Below, one piece after another: positions 1 through 19,700 of a DNA stretch of 24,323 nucleotides. A model generated the notes under the pieces. That model was not told the DNA's origin. It did no database searches and worked only from the letters and a program-made list of their open reading frames with translations. Source of the stretch: a virus. Its lineage: Duplodnaviria; Heunggongvirae; Uroviricota; Caudoviricetes. How positions within the stretch are numbered: the stretch's first letter is position 1; each line of letters starts with the position of its first letter. The translations under genes were made by a program, and so were the position numbers. Location: positions 1-24,323 of IMG/VR virus record IMGVR_UViG_2645727563_000003. One strand, written 5' to 3'.

Positions 1-100
1 CACGCCGTGCTTGCCTGTGGAGGGATGGTGCAGTCAGACCGCCCGTTGAAGCAGGAACCCTCCGAAATGATTCAGGCGACAGCCTGAACATAGCAGGAAT

Positions 101-120
101 CCACACCCCGAAGGGCGTGG
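101..120 (-). terminator. Stem-loop with UUCG tetraloop 6 nt downstream of the 121-aa gene stop; possible terminator or processing site
   Basis: Plus strand ccacaccc-cgaa-gggcgtgg; on the minus-strand RNA an 8-bp stem (one G-U) with UUCG loop, followed by a moderately U-rich tract. Confidence 0.3.
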
Positions 121-126
121 AGGATG

Positions 127-492
127 TCACGCTGCCTCTTTAATGTTGGCGGCTATCCATGCCGCCGTGTGCTGTTTAACCTGGTCCAGGTCGATGTATG
201 TGCCAACATATTGACTCAAATCCTGCAAGGTACCGATAAATGCATCGGTGCTCTGATCGACGAATTTATCAGCCAGGAAATCAGCAACCAGTTTTGGCAC
301 ACCATCATGTTCCGAAGGTTGTTTTTCCTCGCCACTACCACCGCCGGACGCGCCGTACCCCATCTGTTGCATGATCTGGTCAATTTCATCGCTGATATCC
401 AGCAACTCCATGCCACTCGCGGTCGCCGCTTTGGACATCAGAGCATCCAACTTATCGCTGAGATCCATTAACTCAATAGCTGATAGTGTCAT
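127..492 (-). CDS. Small acidic protein, last gene of Dar-like operon in window (DdrA position by synteny)
   Basis: 121-aa ORF; ATG overlaps the stop of the upstream 639-aa gene by 4 nt (489-492). Product name is from position only. Confidence 0.6.
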   Translation of the reverse strand: MTLSAIELMDLSDKLDALMSKAATASGMELLDISDEIDQIMQQMGYGASGGGSGEEKQPSEHDGVPKLVADFLADKFVDQSTDAFIGTLQDLSQYVGTYIDLDQVKQHTAAWIAANIKEAA

Positions 493-2408
493 GCCGCTAC
501 CCCCGCTTTCTGGATTGCTACCAACAGATCAGCCAGGTGGCGAGCTGCGCCGTTAACCAGCTCTTCGTTTTCCTCAAAACGTCCGGCAGCCTGAAGGGCT
601 GCAATCGCTTCCCGGACATTGCCCCGGGCGTTACGGATCTCCGCCATGTCAGTGCTTTGTATATCCATCACGTTATTGAGATATTCAATGGCTTTATTAG
701 CCTCTGCATCTGCTTCGCTAACCGTTTCATCAGGCTGTGCCGGGGCCGGTTCTGGCTGAGTAATCTCACCGACTTCGGCCTGCAATGCATTGATCATGCT
801 CTGCACCATTTTCTCGGTGCCAGCGCCCCCAGGAAACGCAATATTGGGGAAAGTTTTTTGAAACTGAGTTTTCAGCATTACGCGGAACTCGTCTGGTGAG
901 CTGGTGGCCAGCTCCAGAGCTTTTTGTGCATATTTGCCAAACGGACCATTAGTAAGTGTCTTCGCCAGGAAGTCGAAAGAATCCTCGCGAGGCAATAACT
1001 TCAGGTCGTACTCACTCATTTGCTGATCAGAAAGCGGGGTATCGTAAGTAGCAATGCCGTAGCGTGCATATTCATAATACGGGTCACCTTCATCAGGGCG
1101 CGGCAGAATTGCTTTGTTACCTTCAGGTATTGCGCCAGGGGCCGCCGGACGCATTTGCAGGGCATATCGATATGCACCTACAGAGACTTCTGGTTCAGGC
1201 GAAGAGCTACCGGTATCCTCCGCTGGTTCAGGTTCGACGTTTTCCGGTTTATGTTCTTCTGGTTGGACCAGGTATTCCGATACATTACCCGCTTTATAGG
1301 CTTTAAACAGCTTGCCGATCGCATCTGCCATGTCCACACCCTGTATGGATTTAGCCTTGATCATGTATACGCTGCCATCCGGATCGGTTAACTGGATATA
1401 CCCTTCGCCGCCCCCAATGAATTGCTTCATTGATGCACCATTACTGAGCGTCACTTCCCCGTCCATATGCATACGATTTTTGATACTGGCAAGGCGATCC
1501 GTCAGCGCGCGAGAGTGCCCACCAGTCATCCCCGCTGGAGCAATGGTATCGCGCCCACCAGTGCGATTGAGCTGATCAATCTCCGTCTGCAAACGCTCAT
1601 TCTCTTCATAAAGAGAATCCGCTTCCGATGCAACAGCGTTAATTTTCTGCTCCAGATCTGCCTTCTGCCCTTCTACCGCTGCCACCTGATCCGCGAGGTC
1701 GCTCATGGCATCCTCTTTCTGGTCACTGTCAGCCTGTAGTTGGGTTATTTCATCAACAAGGGCTTTTTTCTTCTTCTGCGCACGCTGGAATTTTGCCGAG
1801 TTTTTCTCTGCAAGGTTGGCAAGTTTCATGGTGACCTGCGCCAGCGTCATATCACGTCCACTCATCGGAGCAACGGTGTGAGTAACGTCTTTTTTATTCA
1901 GTAAGAACTGGAAAGCAACCAGCGTATCGCTATTGGTGATCCGGTTTTCCGCTGTCGGGCTATGAAACAGAATGCTGATAGTCTGACCATCACTGAGCGG
2001 AATAATGGCTGGCAAGACCGGCAGCCCGTTAACGTTACGTGCCCGGCCAATTTCAGCGCCGCCGATCGCGCGCGCGCCGCTCTGGGCCACATCCCCCGTT
2101 TTATCACTCCCCGCAGAGATTCCGGTACCATTCAGCTTCTGGTTCAATGCCCGGACAAATGCCTGCATGGTCCGGTGTAACTGCAAACGAGTAGAACTAA
2201 TCGCCTCCAGTAAATCCGTAGCACACCAGTGGATCGGCGTGTCATAGAAGAACGTAGCCTCGATTTCCTCCAGGGTGTTGGATTCCGTCATCAGATAGCG
2301 GTCCTCACCGGCCATTAATGCGCGATATTCATCATCAGTCACTGGCGGGGGAAGCACGTCAAGCCCAGGCTTGATCGTCACCCCTTTATTGATATTGAAC
2401 TGTTCCAT
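489..2408 (-). CDS. darA: DarA-like protein (candidate virion-packaged antirestriction component)
   Basis: 639-aa ORF, AGGAAA 8 nt upstream of ATG. Central coiled-coil segment; N-terminal region paralogous to the upstream 203-aa protein (shared LxDGQ block and KNSAKFQ motif). Sits downstream of holin-like genes as recalled for the P1 darA operon. Assignment by synteny and architecture, not alignment. Confidence 0.55.
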   Translation of the reverse strand: MEQFNINKGVTIKPGLDVLPPPVTDDEYRALMAGEDRYLMTESNTLEEIEATFFYDTPIHWCATDLLEAISSTRLQLHRTMQAFVRALNQKLNGTGISAGSDKTGDVAQSGARAIGGAEIGRARNVNGLPVLPAIIPLSDGQTISILFHSPTAENRITNSDTLVAFQFLLNKKDVTHTVAPMSGRDMTLAQVTMKLANLAEKNSAKFQRAQKKKKALVDEITQLQADSDQKEDAMSDLADQVAAVEGQKADLEQKINAVASEADSLYEENERLQTEIDQLNRTGGRDTIAPAGMTGGHSRALTDRLASIKNRMHMDGEVTLSNGASMKQFIGGGEGYIQLTDPDGSVYMIKAKSIQGVDMADAIGKLFKAYKAGNVSEYLVQPEEHKPENVEPEPAEDTGSSSPEPEVSVGAYRYALQMRPAAPGAIPEGNKAILPRPDEGDPYYEYARYGIATYDTPLSDQQMSEYDLKLLPREDSFDFLAKTLTNGPFGKYAQKALELATSSPDEFRVMLKTQFQKTFPNIAFPGGAGTEKMVQSMINALQAEVGEITQPEPAPAQPDETVSEADAEANKAIEYLNNVMDIQSTDMAEIRNARGNVREAIAALQAAGRFEENEELVNGAARHLADLLVAIQKAGVAA

Positions 2409-2409
2409 G

Positions 2410-3012
2410 TTAATTTCCTGCTTTCAGTTGCTTAAGACGGCGTTTGAGTTCGCCATTTCGGGCCTTTTCGTTATTGAGTCGGCCTGTCTCCTTATCCAGC
2501 TTCGCCCGCAAATCAGTGATCTGCTGTTGATTGAAAGACACCGAGTTCTGCGCTGATTTATAAGCGGCAACCACCTGAGCATTCCGCTGTTTTGCCTCTT
2601 GCAGGCGCTGAAAGTTGGATTTAACTGCCGGTTTCTTGTCTACCGGATTGGCAACACGCTTCGCTTTGGCGATCAGTGATTTCTGGAATTTTGCGGAGTT
2701 TTTGCGAGCCGCCTGTCCCATGACGGTACCAAGCGTCTTGATATCCGGCGACTGAGCGTTAGGAATAGCTTTTCCATTCAGTTTCACAGACGATATATCG
2801 CCAGTATCGTTTACCTGTATGGCAAGAATTTGTCCGTCGTTAAGAACCAGCTTTGCGGTTTTAACTTTAACGCCATCTTTCGTTGTTGCGCGGTTGCTGG
2901 AGTCAACCTCAATTACCGTAACCCCGGTTTTATTGATCGCCGCGATAAGGGATTTCAGCCCCTTTTCATTAACCTGGTCAAAATCGACCGTTGCATACTT
3001 ATTTTTCGTCAT
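2410..3012 (-). CDS. hdf: Hdf-like protein (paralog of the N-terminal part of the DarA-like protein)
   Basis: ORF open from 3021 (MCQM...); second ATG at 3012 has better spacing to an AGGA. Shares LNDGQILAIQ and RKNSAKFQ with the 639-aa protein, then a basic coiled-coil tail. Confidence 0.55.
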   Translation of the reverse strand: MTKNKYATVDFDQVNEKGLKSLIAAINKTGVTVIEVDSSNRATTKDGVKVKTAKLVLNDGQILAIQVNDTGDISSVKLNGKAIPNAQSPDIKTLGTVMGQAARKNSAKFQKSLIAKAKRVANPVDKKPAVKSNFQRLQEAKQRNAQVVAAYKSAQNSVSFNQQQITDLRAKLDKETGRLNNEKARNGELKRRLKQLKAGN

Positions 3013-3442
3013 CTGACACATCCTGTGCGAGATTTATTACGTAACTTCTGCGGATTTGCTGAGTAACAGGGAAAATCCGATACAACGGGTTAATGAACGA
3101 GTCGCCATGCGTAACCATGACGTTGAAATGCCACAGTCGCTCTCCTTTACCCATATATTCAGTGGGTATGTACAACCATTCACTGTTTTCGCCCTGTTCA
3201 GCCGACGTCAGACAACGTTGTTCGCCTTCAATCACTGTCGTCGGCTTCTGAACATCGCGGATCCAATATCTGACCGTTGCGCCGCGCAAAAACGGGAATT
3301 TAGACCGGTATTTGAACGGCACCCGGATGAAACCCGGTTTAATTTCCACATCACCAAGTTCTAAATGCGTGATGTCCTTGCGTTTTAGCAAATAGCGATC
3401 GGCTAAGGCTAACGCAAGAACGCATACACCCCAGCCAATCAT
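2999..3442 (-). CDS. lydB: LydB-like protein with N-terminal hydrophobic segment (possible antiholin/lysis regulator)
   Basis: 147-aa ORF; ATG overlaps upstream stop (ATGA at 3439-3442). N-terminal MIGWGVCVLALALADRYLL looks like a signal anchor. No lysozyme or peptidase motif recognised. Confidence 0.5.
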   Translation of the reverse strand: MIGWGVCVLALALADRYLLKRKDITHLELGDVEIKPGFIRVPFKYRSKFPFLRGATVRYWIRDVQKPTTVIEGEQRCLTSAEQGENSEWLYIPTEYMGKGERLWHFNVMVTHGDSFINPLYRIFPVTQQIRRSYVINLAQDVSDDEK

Positions 3443-3768
3443 TTCCCGCCTCCCTTTTTCACCAAACTTGTAAGAACATTCAGAATGCTATCGATATTCA
3501 CTCGTTTCATCCCTGAAATCACCTCATGACCGTTATTGCTGGCTATCGTTACCATTAAGTACGTAATTGATAACTCCCAGCCCTCGTGTTGCCCCAATAG
3601 GTACGCCACCGCGCCAGCTGTCACTGCAACAAAGATCTCCGTAACCAATCCCAACAAATTGCCAGACTGGCGACCGTCTCGGACATCCATCAGGAACGTG
3701 CCTATCCCACCAATTACTGAAAGCAGGAGCGCAATAGCAACTGGAGCTAATTCCTGTGTGTCAAGCAC
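3439..3768 (-). CDS. lydA: Holin-like membrane protein (LydA-like), GTG start
   Basis: 109-aa ORF with three hydrophobic segments. No in-frame ATG near the 5' end; GTG at 3768 is preceded by AGGAGGG at 5-nt spacing. Confidence 0.6.
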   Translation of the reverse strand: MLDTQELAPVAIALLLSVIGGIGTFLMDVRDGRQSGNLLGLVTEIFVAVTAGAVAYLLGQHEGWELSITYLMVTIASNNGHEVISGMKRVNIDSILNVLTSLVKKGGGK

Positions 3769-3773
3769 AAGTT

Positions 3774-3794
3774 CCCTCCTACGTTGTCAGGAGG
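3774..3794 (-). promoter_or_regulatory. SD-sequestering hairpin upstream of the holin-like gene
   Basis: On the mRNA: CCUCCU - 8 nt - AGGAGG(G) - 5 nt - GUG start; the anti-SD hexamer is perfectly complementary to the SD. Confidence 0.45.
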
Positions 3795-3835
3795 TAATGG
3801 TATGCAAAGTAACTTCTCAACCGGTCATTTGTTGC

Positions 3836-4117
3836 TTAAGAGGCATTTCTATTGAGGTGCGAATCGATAATCCTTTGTAACTTTTCAAGAATGAGCCTGT
3901 TATTGATGCTGCAAATAATAGTCACGCAATTCTGAAGACTTTCATCCATACCCTTATATTCCGCGAAATACATGCCTATAAAGCCTGCAAGTACGGCAGC
4001 AATACACTCGGCCATCAATTGCCTGCATGACGCTTCGTAACGTTTTTCACGAACCCCATTCAGAAACGAATGCACCCCGCCAAGGATGGAGAGGAGCATT
4101 ATTGTGAAATCACACAT
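3836..4117 (-). CDS. Second holin-like membrane protein, paralog of the 109-aa gene
   Basis: 93-aa ORF; AAGGA 8 nt upstream of ATG 4117. Aligns full-length with the 109-aa protein (shared LLS.IGG...FL..VR..R, AV.AG, TI.S.N, IDS.LN). Confidence 0.6.
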   Translation of the reverse strand: MCDFTIMLLSILGGVHSFLNGVREKRYEASCRQLMAECIAAVLAGFIGMYFAEYKGMDESLQNCVTIICSINNRLILEKLQRIIDSHLNRNAS

Positions 4118-4244
4118 AACTATTTCCTTAATAGTGAATTAAATATCATTGGGAAACGGTATGTACTTTGTGATTTCCACACATACTGGTTTTTGTTAAT
4201 TAAAATCCGCAGCTTGCTATAAATAACGATAGTGAGCAGAAAAT

Positions 4245-4292
4245 ATGCTAATAGGCTATGTACGCGTATCAACAAATGACCAAAACACTGCT
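4245..4292 (+). pseudogene. cin: 5' remnant of a Cin/Gin/Pin-family serine DNA invertase gene
   Basis: ATG at 4245 encodes MLIGYVRVSTNDQNTA, the characteristic invertase N-terminus; the frame then diverges and stops after 47 codons, with no catalytic domain. Confidence 0.7.
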
Positions 4293-4372
4293 TTACTCAG
4301 ACGCCACCGGAAGGAAAAATACGTATTTGCGGAGAGAATGGACAACCCGCATGGGGGGATGTTCCTCCTCCA

Positions 4373-4588
4373 ACGAAAGAAGAGCTAATGGCTATTGCAG
4401 AAGCCAGGAAATTAAGCTTAAAGGCTCAAGCGGACTCTGAAATCGCCTGGCGATAGGATGCGGTTGATGCCGGTATCGCGACGGATGAGGAAACCGCCGC
4501 GCTTTCTGAATCGAAGAAATGCCGGATCCTGCTGATGCGCGTTGATACAGCAAAACCCGTATGGCCTGTCAATCCGCAGGATATTTAA
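4373..4588 (+). pseudogene. 3' fragment of a tail fibre assembly gene (U'-like), no start, internal TAG
   Basis: Frame 2 encodes ...[64 protein letters not shown], resembling the conserved Tfa C-terminus (lambda Tfa ends ...[27 protein letters not shown], from memory). In-frame stop at 4454-4456. Confidence 0.6.
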
Positions 4589-4802
4589 CGGGGGCGTTGT
4601 AGGTGGTGACATATTCAAGCAGTTCTGTTGGATATGTCACCGTTGCTGCATCTCGCTCTACGTTAAATGTATCCGCTCCCCAGATAACACACTCCCTCAA
4701 AAATGCCTCCACCTCTGGCGAGACTTCAACCGCATCATCAGGTCGCTCTTGTTCAGAAACATAAAAACCAACGGTCGTTGGGCTGAAATACATATTCTCC
4801 AT
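4569..4802 (-). CDS. Truncated tail fibre assembly protein (U-like), N-terminal 77 aa only
   Basis: ATG 2 nt after the fibre stop. [15 protein letters not shown]... is Tfa-like; the ORF ends inside the antisense of the opposite-strand tfa fragment, so 3' ends overlap by 20 bp. Confidence 0.5.
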
Positions 4803-4804
4803 AT

Positions 4805-7800
4805 TTAGTATCCTATTGCTTCAAAATGCAAAGTCGGAATTTCGCCGAGATTGGGTGTCGTATACGACACAGTGAATCGCGTTCTTGATACGTCAGTGCC
4901 AGAATCAGTATCGCGATGCGTTGCCAGTGATTTCCCAGCCATTGATGACTGGGTCGAAAAGCTGTAACTCGCTAGTGTTGCCAGCGTTGCTATTTGTGCA
5001 TTTGGGAATTGTCTGGGGAAATTAACCCTGTAGTAATGGGTGTAGTACGTCACCCCACCAAGCACCTGCGCGTTGAAGTTACCAACTGGTGTCAGTGTCA
5101 CAGTGCCAACCTGTCGAATCATACCATTTGGGAGAATATCCCAGGCAGTTTGTCCGTTTCGCGACATACCAAATGCGGACATGTCCGGGAGTTGATTATT
5201 ACCGGTTCCGACATCCCGTTTTGCCGCTTCTCCCAATTGAAGGTATGCGAGAAGACCAGCAACATCCTTTCCACTCAAATTAGTCAGCGTATTGTCCAGC
5301 GGTTGTTTGCCCGCCAGTGCGCTCTGTACTTCGCTTTTGCTGTAGGCATCCAGATCTTTAGGCGTAAGCGTAATATCCTTCGTGCCGTCAAACGGAACGC
5401 CGTTGATATTCCGTGCAGTCTGTAGTTTTGTGGCAGTTGCAGCATTACCAGTGGTGTTCTGATTACCCGTAGTGTTTACACCTGGAAGATTAATATTGGC
5501 GGAGCCATCGAATGACACGCCGCCTATTGTGCGTGCTGTTTGCAGTTTTGTTGCAGTTGCAGCATTGCCAGTAGTGTTCTGATTACCAGTTGTATTCACA
5601 CCAGGGATGCTGTCTTTTTTAGTATATATCTGAGCCCAGCCCTCTTCGAACCCATAGCCATCACGTGATGAACGGTAATACAATCCACCATTTTTATGGT
5701 GCGCTCGGATTTGGAGAGTCCGACAACTACCTACGCCTGTATAAAAATTTGCAACGATATAAGAATCCCCGGAGCGTGTAACATTATACGCACCTGATTC
5801 GGCATTCCACGGGACCGCACCACTAGTATCGGCATAAGTTCCAGTAGCGCGTAGAGCAAAAGCAGATACATTTTCAGCTGTTAGTGTTATATCAGCAGAA
5901 CCATCAAAAGACACGCCGCTTATTTTTCTAGCAGTTTGCAACTTCGTAGCCGTTGAAGCATTGCCGTTCAAACTACCATTGATGCCGCCAGTAACATCGA
6001 GCCCATTACCGATCGTAACAGCTCCATTGGCATTGTTAATGATAAGCGGCCTTAACCTATTATAGGTTCCCAGGCTGTTACCCGAATCGGTCAACATGAA
6101 ATATGTGTTTGAGCCATCGTTTCGGATAAAGAATCCATAGTTGCCATAGGCAATGCGCAGACCATTCCCCGATTTTGAAATGATCTCACCAGTAGCCGTT
6201 AAACCGCCGTTGAGATTTCCTCCGGTTATTGGTAATGCGCCGACATCCGTGGCGGTCGGTTTAATGTGCGAACTGTAAATGACATATACCGTTCCATCAG
6301 TAAGACCAGTTGGTTTATTCGCTGTATAAGTTGGTGATGTATGAATCGTTACGCTGGCGTTACTGGTATAATCCCATTGAATATTTACACCAGTCGCATA
6401 ATTTCCGATTGCAACGTAAATATCGTAAGTATCACCAGATGTATTGACCCAGGCAAAATTTGTAAACCCTGTCGATGTGCGCTGCCATAAAGCACCAGTA
6501 ATCCCCTTCGGATTACCATTACCTGCACGCAAAACAAGTTCAGATATACCTGCCTGTTGAGGTGACCCCACGTTAAATCCCGCGCCACCAATCAACGTAA
6601 TTGAAACAACAGAACTCGCCTGTGGCATGGTTACCGTTGCTAATTTGAACCAACCAGCACCACCGCTGAATGACATTGTTGTTGAGTTGATCGTGCCTAT
6701 AGACCTTGGAGTTAGCTCAATGTTTTTAGAACCGTCAAACAATACCCCATTTATAGTTCTAGCGGTTTGTAACTTGGTCGCTGTAGCCGCGTTACCGGAT
6801 GTATTCTGATTACCCGCAACGTTAACACCAGGTAAATTAATATTCGCAGTACCATCAAAGCTAACTCCGCCGATAGTTCTTGCCGTCTGTAGTTTTGTAG
6901 CGGTTGCTGCATTGCCAGTTGTATTCTGATTGCCAGTGGCATTCACACCAGGAATGGAGTCCCTTGATGTATATACCTGCGCCCACGCTGACCATGCCGC
7001 ATCAGTGTTATCTCTTCGGGAGCGAATGAAAACCGGCGCATGTGCACCGCTCGTACCACTCCAGCCAATAAGCAACTCGCCCTCACCAGCAGCACTCGCA
7101 CCTTTCATGTGCAATACGTTGCCATACGTGGTCGGGTAGCTATTGTTGTACGCCTCGTACATTTGAATGCCAGCAGTACCCTGAGTAGAGCCACTTAACG
7201 CCGTTACGCGCCCGCGTGATACCAACGTATTGATATTAACGTCCCCTGAACCATCAAATTTAACACCGTTGATGTTTCTTGCCGTCGCAAGTTTTGTCGC
7301 GGTAGCAGCATTCCCGGTGGTGTTCTGGTTACCTGTTGTATTTACACCTGGAAGGTTGATATTGGCCGAGCCATCAAATGCCACACCGCCAATCGTGCGT
7401 GCTGTTTTCAATTTCGTCGCGGTGTCGGCGTTCCCTGTCAGTGCCCCGGTGATCCCGCCGTTGAAAGTCTGGCGTGCACTCCATGTGTTAGCCGTACTCA
7501 ACAGGGGGATCTTTTCACCGCTGGTACCGAGTTCTCTTAAACCAAGGTATTGGATAACGGCCAGTGTGCTTGTTTTAGCCAGAATATCGCGACCGACTGA
7601 CGTTAAATCAGTCTGCGCTACCGTATCCTTACCAGTGAAATAAGGCAGTTTGTTTGCACCAGTCGCAAGGGCAGCGAGCGCGGTTAAAGTTGCATCCAGA
7701 GGCTGTTTGCCTGCCAGCGCATTTGTCATTGTTGTCGCAAAGTTCGGGTCATTGCCCAGTGCTGCTGCAAGCTCATTCAGGGTATCAAGAGCTTCAGGTG

Positions 7801-8905
7801 ATGAGCCGACCAATGCAGAGATAGCAGCTCTTACATAAGCGGTCGTAGCAATCTGCGTGTTATTCGTACCCTGTGCAGCGGTAGGCGCAGTAGGTATTCC
7901 CGTTAATGCAGGACTTGCTAAAGGAGCTTTAAGAGCCAGAGCATTGTTGATAGTTGTGCTGAAATTCGGGTCGTTATTGATCGCAGCCGCTATTTCTTTA
8001 AGCGTATCCAGTGTGCCAGGTGCACCGTTGATAAGTGCCGTTATAGCTGCCTTAACAAAGGCTGTATTTGCGATCTGCGTGCTGTTTGTACCTTGCGCTG
8101 CCGTCGGCGCGGTTGGCGTTCCTGTCAGACTCGGGCTTTCTATTGGCGCTTTGGTATCAGCCAGCTCTTTTACAGACTTAACGGCTTTAGGGGTAGCCGC
8201 CATTGTTTCGCTGTCGCTGTTAGTTGCGCTACTGAGCTGAACTAATCCCTTTTGTGTTGTGCTTGCATCCTGCGCCGTATACTTGCTTTTAGCCAGATCG
8301 TAGGCTTTTTTAACCGCCAGCGAACTTGCAGCGACATCACTTCTGGTACTGGTTACAGAGTCGGAAATTTCAATGCCTATCGCGAGATCGATGCGGTCGG
8401 ATACATCTATCATTTCCTTAGTAATAGCAGATACGCCAGCAGGGATATTCACCGTACAAACAAGCAGTTCCCCATCTCCTAACTGATATGAATCGGTATA
8501 GGTTCTGGCAACAAATTCAGCCGCATGAATATGTGACGCGGTATTAACCTGATAAGAATCTTCTCCAAGGAGGTATCTTCCCTTCAGCACAATTGCATAT
8601 TTCTTACCTGCGCTAAGTGCAAGAGAAATATCCTTACGCTGCTGAATAGTTACCTGGTAGAATTCACCAATATTCACTGACGCCGCGCCAGCGGTTTTAT
8701 CACCATCCACTGAGGTGATTAACAGGTTCATCCCACCGCCAGGCTTAGGAAAAAAACCGGCATAAAATCCAGGGTCAACAATTCCCCTGAATTTTCGGTT
8801 TAGCGCGGCTGACAGATATGGTTCGTGGTATTGCACATCAGCCACCAGAGCCAACGACTCGGGTGATGGGTAAGTAACCGATGTGACAACTGTAACGTCA
8901 TTCAT
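4805..8905 (-). CDS. Tail fibre protein (S-like) with collagen-like repeats
   Basis: Start chosen at ATG 8905 (MNDVTVVTSVTYPSPE...), AAGGA 10 nt upstream, 11 nt after upstream stop; the longest ORF extends to 8992 but overlaps the upstream gene. At least seven ~40-aa repeats (PGVNTTGNQNTTGNAATATKLQTARTIGGVSFDGSANINL) and two ~75-aa N-terminal modules. Confidence 0.8.
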   Translation of the reverse strand: MNDVTVVTSVTYPSPESLALVADVQYHEPYLSAALNRKFRGIVDPGFYAGFFPKPGGGMNLLITSVDGDKTAGAASVNIGEFYQVTIQQRKDISLALSAGKKYAIVLKGRYLLGEDSYQVNTASHIHAAEFVARTYTDSYQLGDGELLVCTVNIPAGVSAITKEMIDVSDRIDLAIGIEISDSVTSTRSDVAASSLAVKKAYDLAKSKYTAQDASTTQKGLVQLSSATNSDSETMAATPKAVKSVKELADTKAPIESPSLTGTPTAPTAAQGTNSTQIANTAFVKAAITALINGAPGTLDTLKEIAAAINNDPNFSTTINNALALKAPLASPALTGIPTAPTAAQGTNNTQIATTAYVRAAISALVGSSPEALDTLNELAAALGNDPNFATTMTNALAGKQPLDATLTALAALATGANKLPYFTGKDTVAQTDLTSVGRDILAKTSTLAVIQYLGLRELGTSGEKIPLLSTANTWSARQTFNGGITGALTGNADTATKLKTARTIGGVAFDGSANINLPGVNTTGNQNTTGNAATATKLATARNINGVKFDGSGDVNINTLVSRGRVTALSGSTQGTAGIQMYEAYNNSYPTTYGNVLHMKGASAAGEGELLIGWSGTSGAHAPVFIRSRRDNTDAAWSAWAQVYTSRDSIPGVNATGNQNTTGNAATATKLQTARTIGGVSFDGTANINLPGVNVAGNQNTSGNAATATKLQTARTINGVLFDGSKNIELTPRSIGTINSTTMSFSGGAGWFKLATVTMPQASSVVSITLIGGAGFNVGSPQQAGISELVLRAGNGNPKGITGALWQRTSTGFTNFAWVNTSGDTYDIYVAIGNYATGVNIQWDYTSNASVTIHTSPTYTANKPTGLTDGTVYVIYSSHIKPTATDVGALPITGGNLNGGLTATGEIISKSGNGLRIAYGNYGFFIRNDGSNTYFMLTDSGNSLGTYNRLRPLIINNANGAVTIGNGLDVTGGINGSLNGNASTATKLQTARKISGVSFDGSADITLTAENVSAFALRATGTYADTSGAVPWNAESGAYNVTRSGDSYIVANFYTGVGSCRTLQIRAHHKNGGLYYRSSRDGYGFEEGWAQIYTKKDSIPGVNTTGNQNTTGNAATATKLQTARTIGGVSFDGSANINLPGVNTTGNQNTTGNAATATKLQTARNINGVPFDGTKDITLTPKDLDAYSKSEVQSALAGKQPLDNTLTNLSGKDVAGLLAYLQLGEAAKRDVGTGNNQLPDMSAFGMSRNGQTAWDILPNGMIRQVGTVTLTPVGNFNAQVLGGVTYYTHYYRVNFPRQFPNAQIATLATLASYSFSTQSSMAGKSLATHRDTDSGTDVSRTRFTVSYTTPNLGEIPTLHFEAIGY
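5425..7375 (-). repeat. Interspersed near-identical 120-240 bp coding repeats inside the tail fibre gene
   Basis: Copies at about 5425-5665, 5935-6025, 6715-6955 and 7255-7375 encode the 40-aa repeat; they also generate the long spurious plus-strand ORFs here. Confidence 0.7.
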
Positions 8906-11699: not shown

Positions 11700-12055
11700 A
11701 GCACCACGTCCTGTGTGATAGTTATATCCCTGATACGAATGGATATTTTCAACTTATCAAAAGCATCTCCCTCGGCTACTGACAAGCCAGAAATCGGTAT
11801 GTCGGGTAAATCTACCGTCAGTTTTTGCAAAAGCATTGCCTCAACCGCAATTTGAACATGCGACAAGTTGGTCGGTTCGTGTTTAAACTGCGGTAAAACA
11901 TTGCCCCATGACGGATCTCCGTATACCTCACCCTGATAAGTGTTTAGCCACTCATATAAACGAGCGCCCCAGGCCTCCTCCTGGGACTCATACGTTTTTA
12001 CGCCGGATAACTCCAGCGTCAGCAAAGGATCAATTTCGTTATTGTTGGCCATCAA
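11696..12055 (-). CDS. Small baseplate/morphogenesis protein (PmgA position by synteny)
   Basis: 119-aa ORF, 4-nt overlap with the tape measure gene stop. Confidence 0.55.
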   Translation of the reverse strand: MMANNNEIDPLLTLELSGVKTYESQEEAWGARLYEWLNTYQGEVYGDPSWGNVLPQFKHEPTNLSHVQIAVEAMLLQKLTVDLPDIPISGLSVAEGDAFDKLKISIRIRDITITQDVVL

Positions 12056-15000
12056 TCAACTCTCGCGTAGTCATTCATCAACGGATCATCAATTGACAGT
12101 GGCACCGTGCGCATAACGCCCGGTTGAGGCGTGCTGACCTTTACGACAGTTCCCTGGCCTTTCGCCGAGTCTTTAGTGTGCTCTTCAATCCTGGCAAGCA
12201 ATGAGGTCATCTGCGCAAACAGCCGCTTCGTTTCACCATCAAGTGAAACGGTATTATCAGCCAACTGCATTGTCGGCTTGGCACCGGAGCCGCCAAGGTC
12301 ACTAATAACCTGTCCGTCTATCTGCATACGACCGGTTGGTTGCTGCAAATCGTTGGCGGCAGTCGTCACCTGGGACGTGGAGGCTGGTTCAGGCGCATTA
12401 TTTTTCCGCATCCCCGGCGAGTTGCGGAGTTTATCAAATAGTCCATCAATCCCCATTTGTGCGCCGAGTTGGTCAAAGTAACTTGAATTGCTGGCCACCG
12501 GACGTGCCTCTTCAACTGGCATAGGTGTATCAACATACACATTGCCAGCTGCCGTTGCGGTCCCCTTCCCTCGTGCACGTTCTTCGAGCGTTCCCTGAAC
12601 GACTTCCCGACGCATACCCCGGCCATTCATGAATTTGTTGACCAGATCATTCACCCCCGTAAGTTCACCAATCCGGTCTACTAATCCCCCTTTTTCAAAC
12701 GGATTTTCGCCAGGGGTAAACGCCAGGCCCGTAGACTGATCAACAAAGGCGTTTTCCGGAAGGTTATCCATTCTAGGGGATTGGCTGCCTTGTTGCTGTC
12801 TTTGTTGCTGTCTCCCCCCTTGTGAACCCGCCCCGGGGGTATAAATATCACCACCTAAATAGCGAGCACGATGAGTATTGACCTTAATCGCATACTCGCG
12901 GTTTTCCTTCGATAATTCACCGGTGCCTTTTTTCCACTTATTAATAGTGCCAAACCCGGCGTTATATGCAGTGATGGCCTCGTTCCAATCTCCCTTTGCT
13001 TGTTTCAAATAATTGCTCATGAGAAGAGCAGCAGCTTCTGCCGATTTTTCTGGATTAAAAGAATCTTCCCGAGATAATCCAGTTTCCTTACGGGCAATGT
13101 CCGTAAACTGAAACATCCCGAGCGCACCACCACTCTTTTTCCCATTAACCCATCTTAACTGGGATACTGCATTTGGATTACCATTTGATTCAGTGGCTGC
13201 TATCGCATAAAGAGTACCTTCAGGAAGGCCATACTTTTTCTCAAGTTCAGCAAAATATGGAGCCAACTTATCGAGATTTGCCTTACCTTCAGCGCCAAGA
13301 CTTCCGACTTTTACATCCAAGTTGCCATTGTTGTAGGTATCCGCAGCTTTCTGAATGTCATTCCTGGTGCCAGTGGTATTAAGCGACGATGATGACGAGC
13401 TATTTTGACCAATAGCTTTATCAATTTTCTGCAACGCGCTATTGCCCGTTTCTACGGCATTTGCATTGATTATCTGATTGGCAGTTTCTTTAACTGTTTT
13501 ATTGCTATCTTTCGCCGTATCTAGGGATGCATTTACAACACGAGTGACAATATTAGCCTTTTTAGAGGTATATTCAGTCTTAGGAGCATTGTCCTCCTGA
13601 CGTTCTTTAGCAGGTGTTTTTAATTCAGGTGTAACCTCTTTCGCATCCGCTTTATTGACTAGCTTTGATGCAACCCAGGCCACTGGGGTGCTCTGAACAG
13701 CGGCATCTGCAACCTCACCTGAAAGCTCTTTTGCGGCACTCCATAGATTACTGCCAGCTTCTTTAATGTATTTCCCTGGGTTCTTAATGAAATCAATTGC
13801 ACTATCAATTGCATCACTGAAAACCTGTTTCAGGTTATCGACAGTAAAGAAGTCTTTGATGGCGTCTAATTTTTCGTTCAGACTCTTGGTTGTGTCACTG
13901 AACCAGGCTGAAATAGCATCGCCAATCTTGGCTGTGTAATCGTTGAATGTTGTGGATATGGTGTCACCAAGGTTAGAAATATATGTTTCTAAGTTGGTAA
14001 TCCCACTATCAATGGCCTGAGCAATACTTTCCGTCGAAAATGATTGCAACATATTGCCGATATCCTCAAATCCAAGTGATTTGAGAACCTCACCAATGGC
14101 GCTGCTAATACCAGATACCAGTCCCCCCATATCGAGAACGTTAGCCAGTGTATAAGCCGCTTTTTGCTGAAAAGATGGATCTTCCCCATCCTTAAGCCCA
14201 AAGGTCCGACGTTGTGCTTCTGTATCATTCCAACCGGTTACCGCATCATAGATACCTCCAGCCACCGTGCCGACTAGCGGAATTGCGCGTAAAGCCCCCT
14301 TTGCAAGAGCCTTAACACCTAGTTTCCCCAATCCCTTAGTTGCAAGTTTTCCGGCACCGCGAGTAGCCAATTCGCCAGCTTCTTTGGCAGCAGCTTTTTT
14401 CCCACCAAAGCCCAATAAGCTTGCAACTTTTTTTATACCTAAAGCGCCTAGTGCCATCGAGCCAACTTTCTTTAGTACCCCACGGCCAAAAATAAGGGAA
14501 GCAATACCACCGGCCCCCTTCCCTAACAGGCTAAATAGTTTGGACAGCAAGCCGCCCTTCTTTTTCCCGGTGTTTTTGGCTATCTGATCAAGGGCGCTGA
14601 GAATCTTGTCATTGCCCTCTTTAATTTCGCTGGTCTGCTCCTGAAGTTCCTGAACCGTCCGTTTTTGGGTGTTAACCTGAACGACATCGGCACTATTTTG
14701 CGATTTACGCCTAAAAAAACCTTTTCTACGGCTGTTATCGTCATTGCCACGAATCACATCGGCAATAGACTTTCTGGCACCATTAAGCGATCCACCAACT
14801 TCTTTTGATATCCCGCCAAGCTCCTTCCCTGCTGCCCACAATGGACCAGCAACGGCATAACCTAACGCATCGACGGCACGAGTCTCTGAAGGGTTACCTA
14901 TGCCTTCAGCTACTTTTGACAGTTTTTTTAATAAACCTGATTCAGCATTTAGACGCTCATCATCCTCTTTGCGCCTGGCCTTTTCAGCACGTTCAGCACG

Positions 15001-15801
15001 GGCATCTTCCGCTGCGGCCTTACTCCCTGACTTTCCAATAAAACGACCACGCGCATCGCGTTGGTTTTGGCTTTTTTGCGCACCGCCTTTTTGATCGAAC
15101 ATTTCGCGAGCGTGTTCGGCTGCTTCGGTCCGTTGTGCCTTTATATCCTCTGGTATAGCCTTCCTGCGTCGTTTTTTACCCTTTGGTGTAGTTGATTTGG
15201 CCTGCTGTTCCTGTTGAGCAATGCCCTCCTGAACTACACGAGAAACGTCCCCTAAATTAAGCCGTTTCATTGCGTCAACAATAGGGTCTACTGATGGCGC
15301 ATTGGCCACAAAGTCTGGCCGGGAATTTTCGATTGTTCGATTTAATGCCGACACACTGCGAGATACTGGGTCAACCGTTGCAACGCGTTCCCCTTTCAAA
15401 TCACGAGCGAGTTTGACCGTTTCTAACCGCTGTGCTTTAACATCCTCTGTTATTGCCTCTCTTCGTCTATTTGGGGGATTGTGCGCTGTTGGTGCAGCCT
15501 GCTGTGCACGGTTAGTGACTTTGTCCTCCCGTATACGAGAAACGTCCCCTAAATTAAGCCGTTTTATTGCGTCAACAATAGGGTCCACTGATGGCGCATT
15601 GGTCACAAAGTCAGGACGTGAATTTTCGATTGTGCGATTTAATGCCGACACACTGCGAGAGACAGGATCAACAGTTGCAACTCGTTCCCCTTTCAAATCT
15701 TCAACAGCTTCCCGAATACCTGCAAGCTCTTCCAGCTCTTTCGCGCTGGCGGTTTCAACTGTCCTTATAACATCGTCAATATTGGCGTTTTTTCTTTCCA
15801 T
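12052..15801 (-). CDS. sit: Tape measure protein with lytic transglycosylase (SLT) domain, Sit-like
   Basis: 1249-aa ORF. Gly/Ala/Lys-rich hydrophobic block typical of tape measures; SLT-like motif LPEGTLYAIAATESNGNPNAVS...GALGMFQF; internal ~99-aa tandem duplication near the N-terminus. Confidence 0.75.
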   Translation of the reverse strand: MERKNANIDDVIRTVETASAKELEELAGIREAVEDLKGERVATVDPVSRSVSALNRTIENSRPDFVTNAPSVDPIVDAIKRLNLGDVSRIREDKVTNRAQQAAPTAHNPPNRRREAITEDVKAQRLETVKLARDLKGERVATVDPVSRSVSALNRTIENSRPDFVANAPSVDPIVDAMKRLNLGDVSRVVQEGIAQQEQQAKSTTPKGKKRRRKAIPEDIKAQRTEAAEHAREMFDQKGGAQKSQNQRDARGRFIGKSGSKAAAEDARAERAEKARRKEDDERLNAESGLLKKLSKVAEGIGNPSETRAVDALGYAVAGPLWAAGKELGGISKEVGGSLNGARKSIADVIRGNDDNSRRKGFFRRKSQNSADVVQVNTQKRTVQELQEQTSEIKEGNDKILSALDQIAKNTGKKKGGLLSKLFSLLGKGAGGIASLIFGRGVLKKVGSMALGALGIKKVASLLGFGGKKAAAKEAGELATRGAGKLATKGLGKLGVKALAKGALRAIPLVGTVAGGIYDAVTGWNDTEAQRRTFGLKDGEDPSFQQKAAYTLANVLDMGGLVSGISSAIGEVLKSLGFEDIGNMLQSFSTESIAQAIDSGITNLETYISNLGDTISTTFNDYTAKIGDAISAWFSDTTKSLNEKLDAIKDFFTVDNLKQVFSDAIDSAIDFIKNPGKYIKEAGSNLWSAAKELSGEVADAAVQSTPVAWVASKLVNKADAKEVTPELKTPAKERQEDNAPKTEYTSKKANIVTRVVNASLDTAKDSNKTVKETANQIINANAVETGNSALQKIDKAIGQNSSSSSSLNTTGTRNDIQKAADTYNNGNLDVKVGSLGAEGKANLDKLAPYFAELEKKYGLPEGTLYAIAATESNGNPNAVSQLRWVNGKKSGGALGMFQFTDIARKETGLSREDSFNPEKSAEAAALLMSNYLKQAKGDWNEAITAYNAGFGTINKWKKGTGELSKENREYAIKVNTHRARYLGGDIYTPGAGSQGGRQQQRQQQGSQSPRMDNLPENAFVDQSTGLAFTPGENPFEKGGLVDRIGELTGVNDLVNKFMNGRGMRREVVQGTLEERARGKGTATAAGNVYVDTPMPVEEARPVASNSSYFDQLGAQMGIDGLFDKLRNSPGMRKNNAPEPASTSQVTTAANDLQQPTGRMQIDGQVISDLGGSGAKPTMQLADNTVSLDGETKRLFAQMTSLLARIEEHTKDSAKGQGTVVKVSTPQPGVMRTVPLSIDDPLMNDYARVD
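15232..15707 (-). repeat. Tandem direct duplication (297-bp period) inside the tape measure gene
   Basis: Two ~165-180-bp copies starting near 15232 and 15529, by eye well over 90% identical, both encoding LKGERVATVDPVSRSVSALNRTIENSRPDFV.NAPSVDPIVDA.KRLNLGDVSR. Confidence 0.8.
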
Positions 15802-18047: not shown

Positions 18048-18587
18048 CTACCACCAACTGCTAGCTTTCTTCTCTCTAGCTTTTCCTTCGCTTTGCAGTA
18101 AATCTTTACTTCCTGTAGAAATATTTCTATTTGCATCAGCCTCAGACTGAATTACATCTGTCTTAGCTGCTCTCTCCTTCAACTCCTGCTCTATAAAATC
18201 GTTTTCTCGCTGGACACGAGCCGCTTTTGCTTGCAGTTCGAGTTTCATGCTTTCGAGTTGCAGCTTGCGAAGCTCATCCTCATAAGCTTGATCTCGCTTC
18301 TTGTCATTTGCTAGCTCGGCTTCTCGTTTCGCTCTACGTTCATTTTCTGCAGCAACACGCTGTTTTTCGCGTGCAGCAGCGGCAGATGCTGCTTTTTCTC
18401 TTCTAATACGTTCAGCTTGTGCTTGTTGGCGAATAAGTTCTTTTCTGGCATCCTCAGCTTGCTGCTCTTTAGCTCGCCCTTCATTTTCCGCTTGAGCAAT
18501 AGCAGCAATTTGACTTTGCAACGAGTTAGCCAAGGCAGTGCCTACACTAAACGTAGAAAAGATTAGAAATAAAATAATTTTATTCAT
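18048..18587 (-). CDS. Secreted, highly charged coiled-coil protein (TolA-like repeat character)
   Basis: 179-aa ORF; signal peptide MNKIILFLIFSTFSVGTALA then Ala/Glu/Lys/Arg/Gln-rich helix. Visibly lower GC than the tail genes. Confidence 0.65.
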   Translation of the reverse strand: MNKIILFLIFSTFSVGTALANSLQSQIAAIAQAENEGRAKEQQAEDARKELIRQQAQAERIRREKAASAAAAREKQRVAAENERRAKREAELANDKKRDQAYEDELRKLQLESMKLELQAKAARVQRENDFIEQELKERAAKTDVIQSEADANRNISTGSKDLLQSEGKAREKKASSWW

Positions 18588-18590
18588 AAA

Positions 18591-19112
18591 TTATTTCTTT
18601 TCTGGACAAGTAGCATTTGGCTGAATTCGAGTTTCATTATCTTTAGTTGAAATAAGCACAGCAAGCCCCGTTGTAAACTGGCATGCTTTACCAACTTGAG
18701 TTGAAGTGAACACCTTAGTTCCTTCTTTATAAGTCAGTGAAACACCTTCAACAATTGTTTTATCACTAACCAAAGAACCAGCCGCTGCACCAAGAGCCGC
18801 ACCACCAGTACCGCCAGCTACAGCACCCAGTGTCGATGTGCCTTTAACATTATAACCGGCAACGCCCCCAGCAACAGCTCCCAGTACCGCACCAAATGTC
18901 TGTGCCGCTTCTTTATTAGCTTTATTATCAACTTTCACTTTAGCTGGAAGCACAGAGATAATATTGACTGTCTTTGTTTCCTGCTTCGAATTCAATTGAG
19001 CGGTATCATAAACATCGGCAGCATAATCAGCACCGCTAGATTGACACCCAGAAAGAAGAATTGCAGATACAACAAGAGCGCATAAAGTATACTTTTTAGA
19101 CATAAGAATCAT
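18591..19112 (-). CDS. Lipoprotein with glycine-zipper motif
   Basis: 173-aa ORF; lipobox LSGC after a hydrophobic leader, then GAVLGAVAGGVAGY...GAVAGGTGGAALGAAAGS. Start may be the ATG at 19103 instead. Low GC. Confidence 0.65.
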   Translation of the reverse strand: MILMSKKYTLCALVVSAILLSGCQSSGADYAADVYDTAQLNSKQETKTVNIISVLPAKVKVDNKANKEAAQTFGAVLGAVAGGVAGYNVKGTSTLGAVAGGTGGAALGAAAGSLVSDKTIVEGVSLTYKEGTKVFTSTQVGKACQFTTGLAVLISTKDNETRIQPNATCPEKK

Positions 19113-19448: not shown

Positions 19449-19477
19449 TTGACCTTTTAATCGTTCAGGCTTATAGT
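19449..19477 (+). promoter_or_regulatory. Sigma70-like promoter candidate for the c4/icd/ant transcript
   Basis: TTGACC (19449-19454), 17-bp spacer, TATAGT (19472-19477), in an AT-rich intergenic region. Confidence 0.4.
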
Positions 19478-19589
19478 TTCGCCGTCGTAGCAAATTCTGC
19501 GACCGGGTTTAGCAGCCTGAATGATTGTGCGGACAGCCGCAGATATCCGATATTGCGGTATTTTTGTGTCCGTAAAACCGCGTTACGCC

Positions 19590-19700
19590 CAAATTATGGT
19601 GGGGCGTGATGGGGAGGCTTCGGCCTGCTGGTTTCACAATCGCCAGTCTGCTAACCCCGTCACGTCCTGCCACCTGTTTAGCAGCGGGTAGCAGGTTGTT
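19590..19700 (+). ncRNA. c4: Candidate c4-like antisense regulatory RNA in the ant leader
   Basis: About 450 nt of GC-rich non-coding leader with stem-loops; ctgctaa (19648-19654) is complementary to gtttagcagc, present at 19487-19496 and 19677-19686. Boundaries approximate. Confidence 0.35.

Follow-up and report, generated by a model that had tools for sequence, protein, structure and literature searches.

The dar operon of phage P1 has been under study since the 1980s. Only in P1 has it been demonstrated that the Dar proteins are packaged into the head and that they protect against type I restriction (PMC9024508; PMC12810830). DarA, Hdf and DdrA were detected in P1 virions by LC-MS/MS (PMC9024508), and cryo-EM of P1 revealed 55 DarA-Hdf pairs on the inner surface of the capsid, where they touch the DNA, with which they are ejected (PMC12810830). 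Taken together, virion proteomics and cryo-EM place DarA, Hdf and DdrA inside the head. Deleting either hdf or darA in P1 gives particles that contain none of the Dar proteins (PMC12810830). Hdf was described in 2017 as a homologue of an N-terminal fragment of DarA (PMC5512222), and within the DarA-N family, known from polyvalent proteins of phages, the domain that Hdf and DarA have in common is the founding example (Iyer et al. 2017, PMC5512222).

Here, we analyzed a stretch of 24,323 nt from a Caudoviricetes record (IMGVR_UViG_2645727563_000003, positions 1 to 24,323), hereafter referred to as the window. The block on its minus strand at positions 127-4117 belongs almost certainly to a P1-like plasmid-prophage (Punavirus), of which it contains the darA operon and the adjoining lydC gene.

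The block matches P1 gene for gene

When compared with P1 (NC_005856), window positions 131-4296 showed 98.5% DNA identity, with the annotated genes in the same order and of the same lengths. The ORF map contains six intact genes (Table 1), five of which, lydA-lydB-hdf-darA-ddrA, are collinear on one strand and correspond gene for gene to the P1 annotation. This is the order that a first-pass annotation, made from the sequence alone, had named as that of P1. All six of the ORFs it had drawn are present, and the upstream holin paralogue that it had left unnamed is P1 lydC. The P1 darA operon (NC_005856, 27542-31532, including the upstream lydC) and the window agree in the order, strand, lengths and overlaps of these genes and in the late promoter LPdar.

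At the protein level, the six products differ from their P1 counterparts by a total of 17 substitutions. Over the six genes, we counted 43 synonymous and 17 non-synonymous codon changes relative to P1, with no frameshifts or stops, which indicates that the genes are maintained. Every one of the six proteins matches its own PHROG family; for Hdf, DdrA and LydC, which have no NCBIfam model, the family was assigned through PHROGs and Pfam. The analysis thereby establishes which genes make up the block and in what order, that they are intact, what domains their products contain and that the promoter is the one of P1. Because its DNA is this close to that of P1 itself, the gene block is an ordinary one and already known. 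Antisense ORFs, such as the one at 124..471 on the plus strand (115 aa), were rejected as chance occurrences: they lie opposite conserved, well-supported genes and have no counterpart annotated in that stretch of P1.

The rest of the window is also collinear with P1, through R, gp16, bplA, pmgA, sit, pmgB, tub, pmgC, the C4 RNA, ant1, kilA, repL and rlfA/B, while the remaining Dar genes (ddrB, darB and ulx) fall outside the 24-kb window. Departures from P1 are confined to the flanks of the block. Compared with P1, the stop codon of ddrA is TGA instead of TAA, ddrB is not found directly downstream, and the neighbouring cin gene is shortened.

Table 1. Features of the darA operon block and its ddrA-side flank in the window
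Feature	Position	Strand	Length (aa)	Residue differences from P1 protein	Description
lydC	3836..4117	-	93	2	Predicted holin, LydA paralogue
LPdar late promoter	3797..3815	-			-22 box AAGTTACTT at 3815..3807; -10 hexamer TACCAT at 3802..3797
lydA	3439..3768	-	109	0	Holin; GTG start; DNA and protein identical to P1 LydA
lydB	2999..3442	-	147	2	Antagonist of the LydA holin
hdf	2410..3021	-	203	2	Head-internal protein; DarA_N and then a C-terminal helix; 23-nt overlap with lydB
darA	489..2408	-	639	9	Head-internal antirestriction and head-size protein; DarA_N, helical region, DarA_C
ddrA	127..492	-	121	2	Dar-system head protein; start overlaps the darA stop (ATGA)
Right end of IS200/IS605-family TnpB element	1..130	+			Last tnpB codons at 1-87, right-end sequence at 88-130; flank, outside the operon

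Two holin genes on either side of the late promoter

Both LydC and LydA pass the Pfam cut-off for Phage_holin_3_3 (31.1 and 30.1 bits, respectively, against 28.4), and two strongly hydrophobic stretches are present in each of them. The two proteins are 32% identical (E = 3e-14), in agreement with the paralogous holin-like pair noticed from the sequence alone, and LydC matches PHROG 1527, a holin family. The 147-aa protein that had been described as signal-anchored shows a single hydrophobic stretch, at its N-terminus, and is LydB: it covers the Pfam LydB profile from end to end (344.1 bits, residues 1-147 on profile positions 1-147). The start codon of lydB overlaps the stop codon of lydA (ATGA). 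A Pfam search of the six proteins detected neither a lysozyme nor an endolysin domain, in agreement with the first-pass annotation, which had seen no endolysin motif in this cassette.

The coordinates of LPdar were carried over from the P1 annotation with an offset of 2870. Its -22 box and -10 hexamer are contained in a 91-nt block (3760-3850) that is 100% identical to P1. Since lydC is located upstream of LPdar, it is probably outside the transcript of the other five genes. Hence, the idea of a Dar-like operon fused to a holin cassette needs to be amended in one respect: what lies here is an actual Dar operon, of the P1 group (Punavirus), but lydC is probably transcribed separately from it. 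When we searched the window for structured RNAs with Rfam at gathering thresholds, the hits were limited to the C4 RNA together with its a1/b1 targets, a long way downstream of the block.

Hdf and DarA are built on the same N-terminal domain

The 203-aa and 639-aa proteins had been proposed to share an N-terminal domain, with Hdf as a homologue of a DarA fragment. Pfam DarA_N (cut-off 27 bits) is present in both, with 144.7 bits (E = 1.5e-42) in DarA and 77.3 bits (E = 1.1e-21) in Hdf, in line with the literature (PMC5512222). As both scores are far above the cut-off, the paralogy of Hdf and DarA is, judged on their sequences, beyond chance. A direct BLASTP comparison of the two gave 29% identity over 105 residues (E = 0.001). 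The motifs that had drawn attention to the pair, LNDGQILAIQ and KNSAKFQ in Hdf and LSDGQTISIL and KNSAKFQ in DarA, are all present and represent the conserved Asp and Asn-x-basic positions of DarA-N (PMC5512222). After KNSAKFQ, the region of DarA around residues 199-282 presents weak matches to coiled-coil families in Pfam.

DarA also passes Pfam DarA_C (62.4 bits against a cut-off of 27) and the NCBIfam equivalog NF052326, antirestriction phage head protein DarA, with 1095.7 bits against a cut-off of 350. Identical residues amount to 630 of 639 between the window and P1 DarA, to 201 of 203 for Hdf and to 119 of 121 for DdrA. Hdf matches PHROG 1620, and DdrA matches PHROG 1855 (E = 1e-57). Both DarA and Hdf have counterparts in the solved structure of the P1 head (9ukm/9vz0): Hdf matches chain H of PDB 9ukm, which is named Hdf (E = 4e-122), and DarA matches chain I over residues 1-639. 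In the window, DarA-N is carried by two separate head proteins of small and medium size, in contrast to the giant multidomain proteins found among polyvalent proteins.

A proposed function by analogy with P1

For the window element, lysis timing, virion location and antirestriction activity are inferred from experiments with P1, and the following model is to be read in that light. In the late lytic cycle, the activator-dependent LPdar would give rise to a single transcript with lydA, lydB, hdf, darA and ddrA, one that in P1 probably runs on into ddrB. From lydA to ddrA, the genes are closely spaced and some of them overlap, an arrangement suggestive of coupled translation. LydA would act as a membrane holin restrained by LydB, and the pair would determine when the cell wall is reached by the endolysin, whose gene lies elsewhere. 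In Hdf and DarA, the shared DarA_N domain is followed by a long helix, and the two proteins would pair through their helices. These pairs would be placed on the inner face of the capsid, at the penton-hexon junctions, and would also contact the packaged DNA. Hdf and DarA would be needed for a normal head size and for the loading of DdrA, DdrB, DarB and Ulx, and the prohead protease would trim the N-terminus of DarA. Upon infection, the Dar proteins would exit the head with the DNA and, acting in cis, shield it against type I restriction enzymes, EcoA-type enzymes being the presumed target of the DarA/DdrA branch.

One could argue that Hdf and DarA are mainly capsid-assembly or head-size factors and docking sites, and that antirestriction is exerted by the Dar proteins they recruit. 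We consider this possible, if rather doubtful. It would fit with the binding of Hdf and DarA to the penton-hexon junctions, where they appear to stabilise the capsid, and with the loss of all other Dar proteins when either of the two is missing (PMC12810830). However, a role in docking or assembly and a direct protective role of Hdf and DarA are not mutually exclusive.

A TnpB element abuts ddrA

Positions 1..130 of the window are identical to Salmonella phage SJ46, in which the gene is annotated as insQ, and the TnpB protein of SJ46 passes NCBIfam guided_TnpB with 383.8 bits. The element is TnpB-only, and it is the one unusual feature that touches the block. At the junction (130/131), the right end of the element supplies the last base of the final codon of ddrA and its stop codon, so that both are regenerated; the TGA stop, in place of TAA, is due to the insertion sequence ending there. 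In SJ46, the element is about 1.3 kb long, with tnpB on the opposite strand, and occupies precisely the position between ddrA and the homologue of ddrB, with a ddrB-sized gene beyond it. The insertion sequence separates ddrA from the downstream sequence, and it could lower the expression of ddrB.

Taken further, the block could be the P1 darA operon with a Dar system that is only partly functional: the element, placed between ddrA and ddrB and transcribed in the opposite direction, would cut ddrB off from LPdar and so weaken the DdrB/DarB branch (protection against EcoB/EcoK) but leave the DarA/Hdf/DdrA branch intact. The position of the element, directly against ddrA here and exactly between the two genes in SJ46, speaks in its favour, as does the gap of only 12 nt between ddrA and ddrB in P1, which suggests that they are co-transcribed. 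On the other hand, the ddrA/element junction was found both in SJ46, deposited as a complete phage genome, and in 75 sequenced plasmids, so the insertion is not obviously crippling; moreover, ddrB could be expressed by read-through or from a promoter inside the insertion sequence. Altogether, we find a partial loss of function unlikely.

The guide RNA of TnpB would extend into the first ~16 bases beyond the right end of the element. In this case, we take those bases to be the 3' end of ddrA. The insertion motif TTAT, with GCTGCCTCTTTAATGT (ddrA 3' end) directly after it, is present in P1 relatives that lack the element. With a guide that reads the 3' end of ddrA, and with this TTAT-target in relatives that lack the insertion sequence, TnpB could cut incoming or co-resident P1-type genomes free of it at the ddrA/ddrB junction, either as a route for its own copying or as a weapon between competing P1-like plasmids, while uncoupling ddrB from the late promoter. 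We put this forward as a speculative idea, with low expectations. When the insertion sequence, in its SJ46 copy, was scanned permissively for structured RNAs, the outcome was only a sub-threshold RAGATH-18 match (28.1 against 44.9 bits), taken as chance.

Finally, a merely superficial similarity, with the block being an unrelated lysis cassette that happens to encode coiled-coil proteins, might be suggested by the weakness of the Hdf-DarA BLASTP match taken alone, but it is refuted by the DNA identity to P1, the near-identical proteins, the curated cut-offs that were passed and the full-length matches to solved P1 chains.

Relatives and the tail-fibre flank

The darA operon with the same TnpB element at its ddrA end is shared by the window and two P1-like phage-plasmids, SJ46 (98.2% identity to window positions 1-4294) and Escherichia phage RCS47. 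On the other flank of the block, the cin invertase gene is cut down to 17 codons and adjoins one fixed tail-fibre gene, whereas in SJ46 a pin-type invertase and an invertible fibre segment come after the remnant of cin. Both the variant with TnpB in the ddrA stop and the one with a reduced cin recur in many sequenced plasmids. The divergent P1-like Cronobacter phage JK004 keeps the order lydA-lydB-hdf-darA-ddrA-ddrB, with protein identities of 60-79%. Upstream of lydA, it carries a 226-aa ORF that in BLASTP matched none of the six proteins of the block, LydC included.

As an annotation, the value of these results is that the window can be recognized as coming from a P1-like phage-plasmid whose Dar/Lyd block is intact, and that the first-pass call to P1 proved accurate. 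They carry little weight as a discovery, given that the structure of the DarA-Hdf pair has already been solved in situ by cryo-EM. The lineage-specific variants that border the block, TnpB in the ddrA stop on one side and a lost cin beside a fixed tail fibre on the other, may have consequences for Dar expression and for host range among the phage-plasmids that are now common in clinical Enterobacteriaceae.

The darA operon of P1 in a P1-like phage-plasmid

The first-pass annotation had recognized the lydA-lydB-hdf-darA-ddrA arrangement of phage P1 in this block, and our comparison with phage records supports that reading. Using megablast, positions 131-4296 were 98.5% identical to P1 (NC_005856), with identity to other P1 isolates reaching 99.6%, and positions 1-4294 were 98.2% identical to the P1-like Salmonella phage SJ46. 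The matching stretch of P1 is annotated as ddrA, darA, hdf, lydB, lydA, the late promoter LPdar and lydC, followed by cin. The six minus-strand ORFs of our map agreed exactly with the coordinates and sizes first proposed, and they are tightly spaced, with ATGA overlaps at the lydA/lydB and darA/ddrA junctions, a 23-nt overlap between lydB and hdf, and a single base between hdf and darA. The entire window runs collinear with P1 from ddrA to rlfB, the C4 antisense RNA in the immunity region included, and matches more than a thousand plasmid records from Enterobacteriaceae, so its source is a P1-like phage-plasmid. The feature is thus the known P1 darA operon, and nothing in the finding itself is surprising to a specialist.

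Gene-by-gene translation showed two residue differences from P1 in each of DdrA, Hdf, LydB and LydC, nine in DarA and none in LydA. At the codon level we counted 43 synonymous and 17 non-synonymous changes, and found no frameshifts or premature stops in the genes of the block when compared to P1, which indicates that they are maintained.

Coordinates of the features described (window positions unless a locus is named)
Feature	Location	Strand	Remarks
lydC	4117..3836	minus	93 aa; ORF map
lydA	3768..3439	minus	109 aa, GTG start; ORF map
lydB	3442..2999	minus	147 aa; ORF map
hdf	3021..2410	minus	203 aa; ORF map
darA	2408..489	minus	639 aa; ORF map
ddrA	492..127	minus	121 aa; ORF map
LPdar	3815..3797		-22 box AAGTTACTT, -10 hexamer TACCAT; inside the 91-nt block identical to P1 (3760-3850)
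TnpB-only IS200/IS605-family element	1-130 (right end), junction 130/131; SJ46 locus L002 2796-4130
cin remnant	4245-4296		first 17 codons
Remnant sequence	4297-4568
77-aa ORF	4569-4802	minus	no family match
Single fixed tail-fibre gene	4805-8905	minus	1366 aa from ATG; Phage_fiber_2 repeats, Gp34 trimerisation domain
JK004 lydA-lydB-hdf-darA-ddrA-ddrB	locus L005 1304-5758		annotated solely as hypothetical proteins

Family assignments and paralogous pairs

The DarA product matched Pfam DarA_N (144.7 bits) and DarA_C (62.4 bits), and passed the NCBIfam equivalog for the antirestriction phage head protein DarA with 1095.7 bits against a cut-off of 350. Hdf matched DarA_N (77.3 bits), LydB matched the LydB family over its full length (344 bits), and the small proteins LydA and LydC were barely over the cut-off of Phage_holin_3_3. 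All six proteins had PHROG matches (DdrA-like, DarA, Hdf-like, lysis determining protein and, twice, holin), the DarA family being labelled 'released from the phage upon host infection'. In PDB 9ukm, chains I and H are full-length matches to DarA and Hdf, respectively. Regarding the proposed paralogy of these two proteins, BLASTP alone gave a modest alignment (29% identity over 105 residues, E = 0.001) covering both motifs noticed initially; their homology is secure because DarA_N is common to both, and it has already been published by Iyer et al. (PMC5512222). LydA and LydC are 32% identical (E = 3e-14), a likeness already recorded in the P1 record.

Proposed mechanism

The mechanism that we infer for this element is the one shown for P1. 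Since LPdar is annotated in P1 between lydC and lydA, its late transcript would cover lydA through ddrA, with lydC probably expressed separately. According to Pfam and the P1 annotation, LydA would act as a holin and LydB as its antagonist. Mass spectrometry of P1 virions identified the head proteins DarA, Hdf and DdrA; DarA and Hdf are listed there as determining head size and as being necessary for the Dar system to be incorporated, and DdrA as antagonizing EcoA (PMC9024508). In the 2026 cryo-EM structure of P1, 55 DarA-Hdf pairs, held by parallel helices, line the inside of the capsid at penton-hexon junctions, with a positively charged face touching DNA; the pairs are absent from particles after DNA ejection, and residues 1-69 of DarA have no visible density, as expected if the prohead protease removes them (PMC12810830). 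Earlier genetics summarised there show that loss of DarA or Hdf gives particles without any Dar proteins, that protection from EcoA and StySA depends on DarA, and that protection from EcoB and EcoK depends on Ulx, DarB and DdrB. By the published domain limits, the nine DarA substitutions fall in three areas: position 10 lies in the N-terminus that is cleaved off, positions 275, 279, 319 and 333 in the helix and penton-binding region, and positions 395, 503, 583 and 607 in the C-terminal part not resolved in the structure.

Departures from P1 around the operon

The window lacks the invertible C segment of P1 and has remnant sequence, a 77-aa ORF and a fixed fibre gene there instead. This arrangement recurs over its full length in at least five E. 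coli plasmids. The truncated cin and fixed fibre imply a host range that would be fixed, without fibre switching.

At the other end, positions 1-130 are non-P1 sequence, the right end of an element carrying the TnpB gene only and standing between ddrA and ddrB. This end is identical in SJ46, whose element encodes a protein passing the NCBIfam TnpB model, and 75 plasmid records contain the element-ddrA junction. Comparing the empty site of P1 (CCTTAT|GCTGCC) with the left junction in SJ46 (CCTTAT|CCAATGTG) and the right junction shared by the window and SJ46 (GATGTCAC|GCTGCC) places the element 3' of TTAT, within the final codon and stop of ddrA. The last bases of the element (…GTCAC) restore the Ala121 codon (GCG versus GCA in P1) and supply the stop (TGA versus TAA), so DdrA is unchanged at 121 aa. 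From known TnpB biology, the guide RNA would be predicted to match the 3' end of ddrA, making element-free relatives cleavable targets. This insertion is a minor curiosity, outside the finding proper.

Elsewhere, two different ORFs (18048-19112, minus strand) occupy the simB/simC position of P1, and may represent a swapped superinfection-exclusion module: a 179-aa DUF5384 protein, and a 173-aa product with a weak, sub-threshold TraT-like match and the PHROGs label 'DNA methyltransferase'. The sit ORF (tape-measure/transglycosylase; 12052-15801, minus strand) encodes 1249 aa versus 1140 aa in P1. Rfam matches to the C4 antisense RNA and to the a1/b1 sites that it targets (19471-19523 and 19592-19677, plus strand) correspond to the P1 immI immunity region and confirm a P1-type regulatory layout.

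Conservation in a divergent relative

Cronobacter phage JK004, with only about 72% DNA identity to the window, has lydA, lydB, hdf, darA and ddrA in the same order, followed by a ddrB-sized gene. A 226-aa ORF upstream of its lydA gave no BLASTP match among the six window proteins, LydC included. Since JK004 keeps the gene order at 60-79% protein identity, the linkage between genes for lysis timing and those for head-internal antirestriction proteins is an old and stable trait of this phage group and not peculiar to the window.
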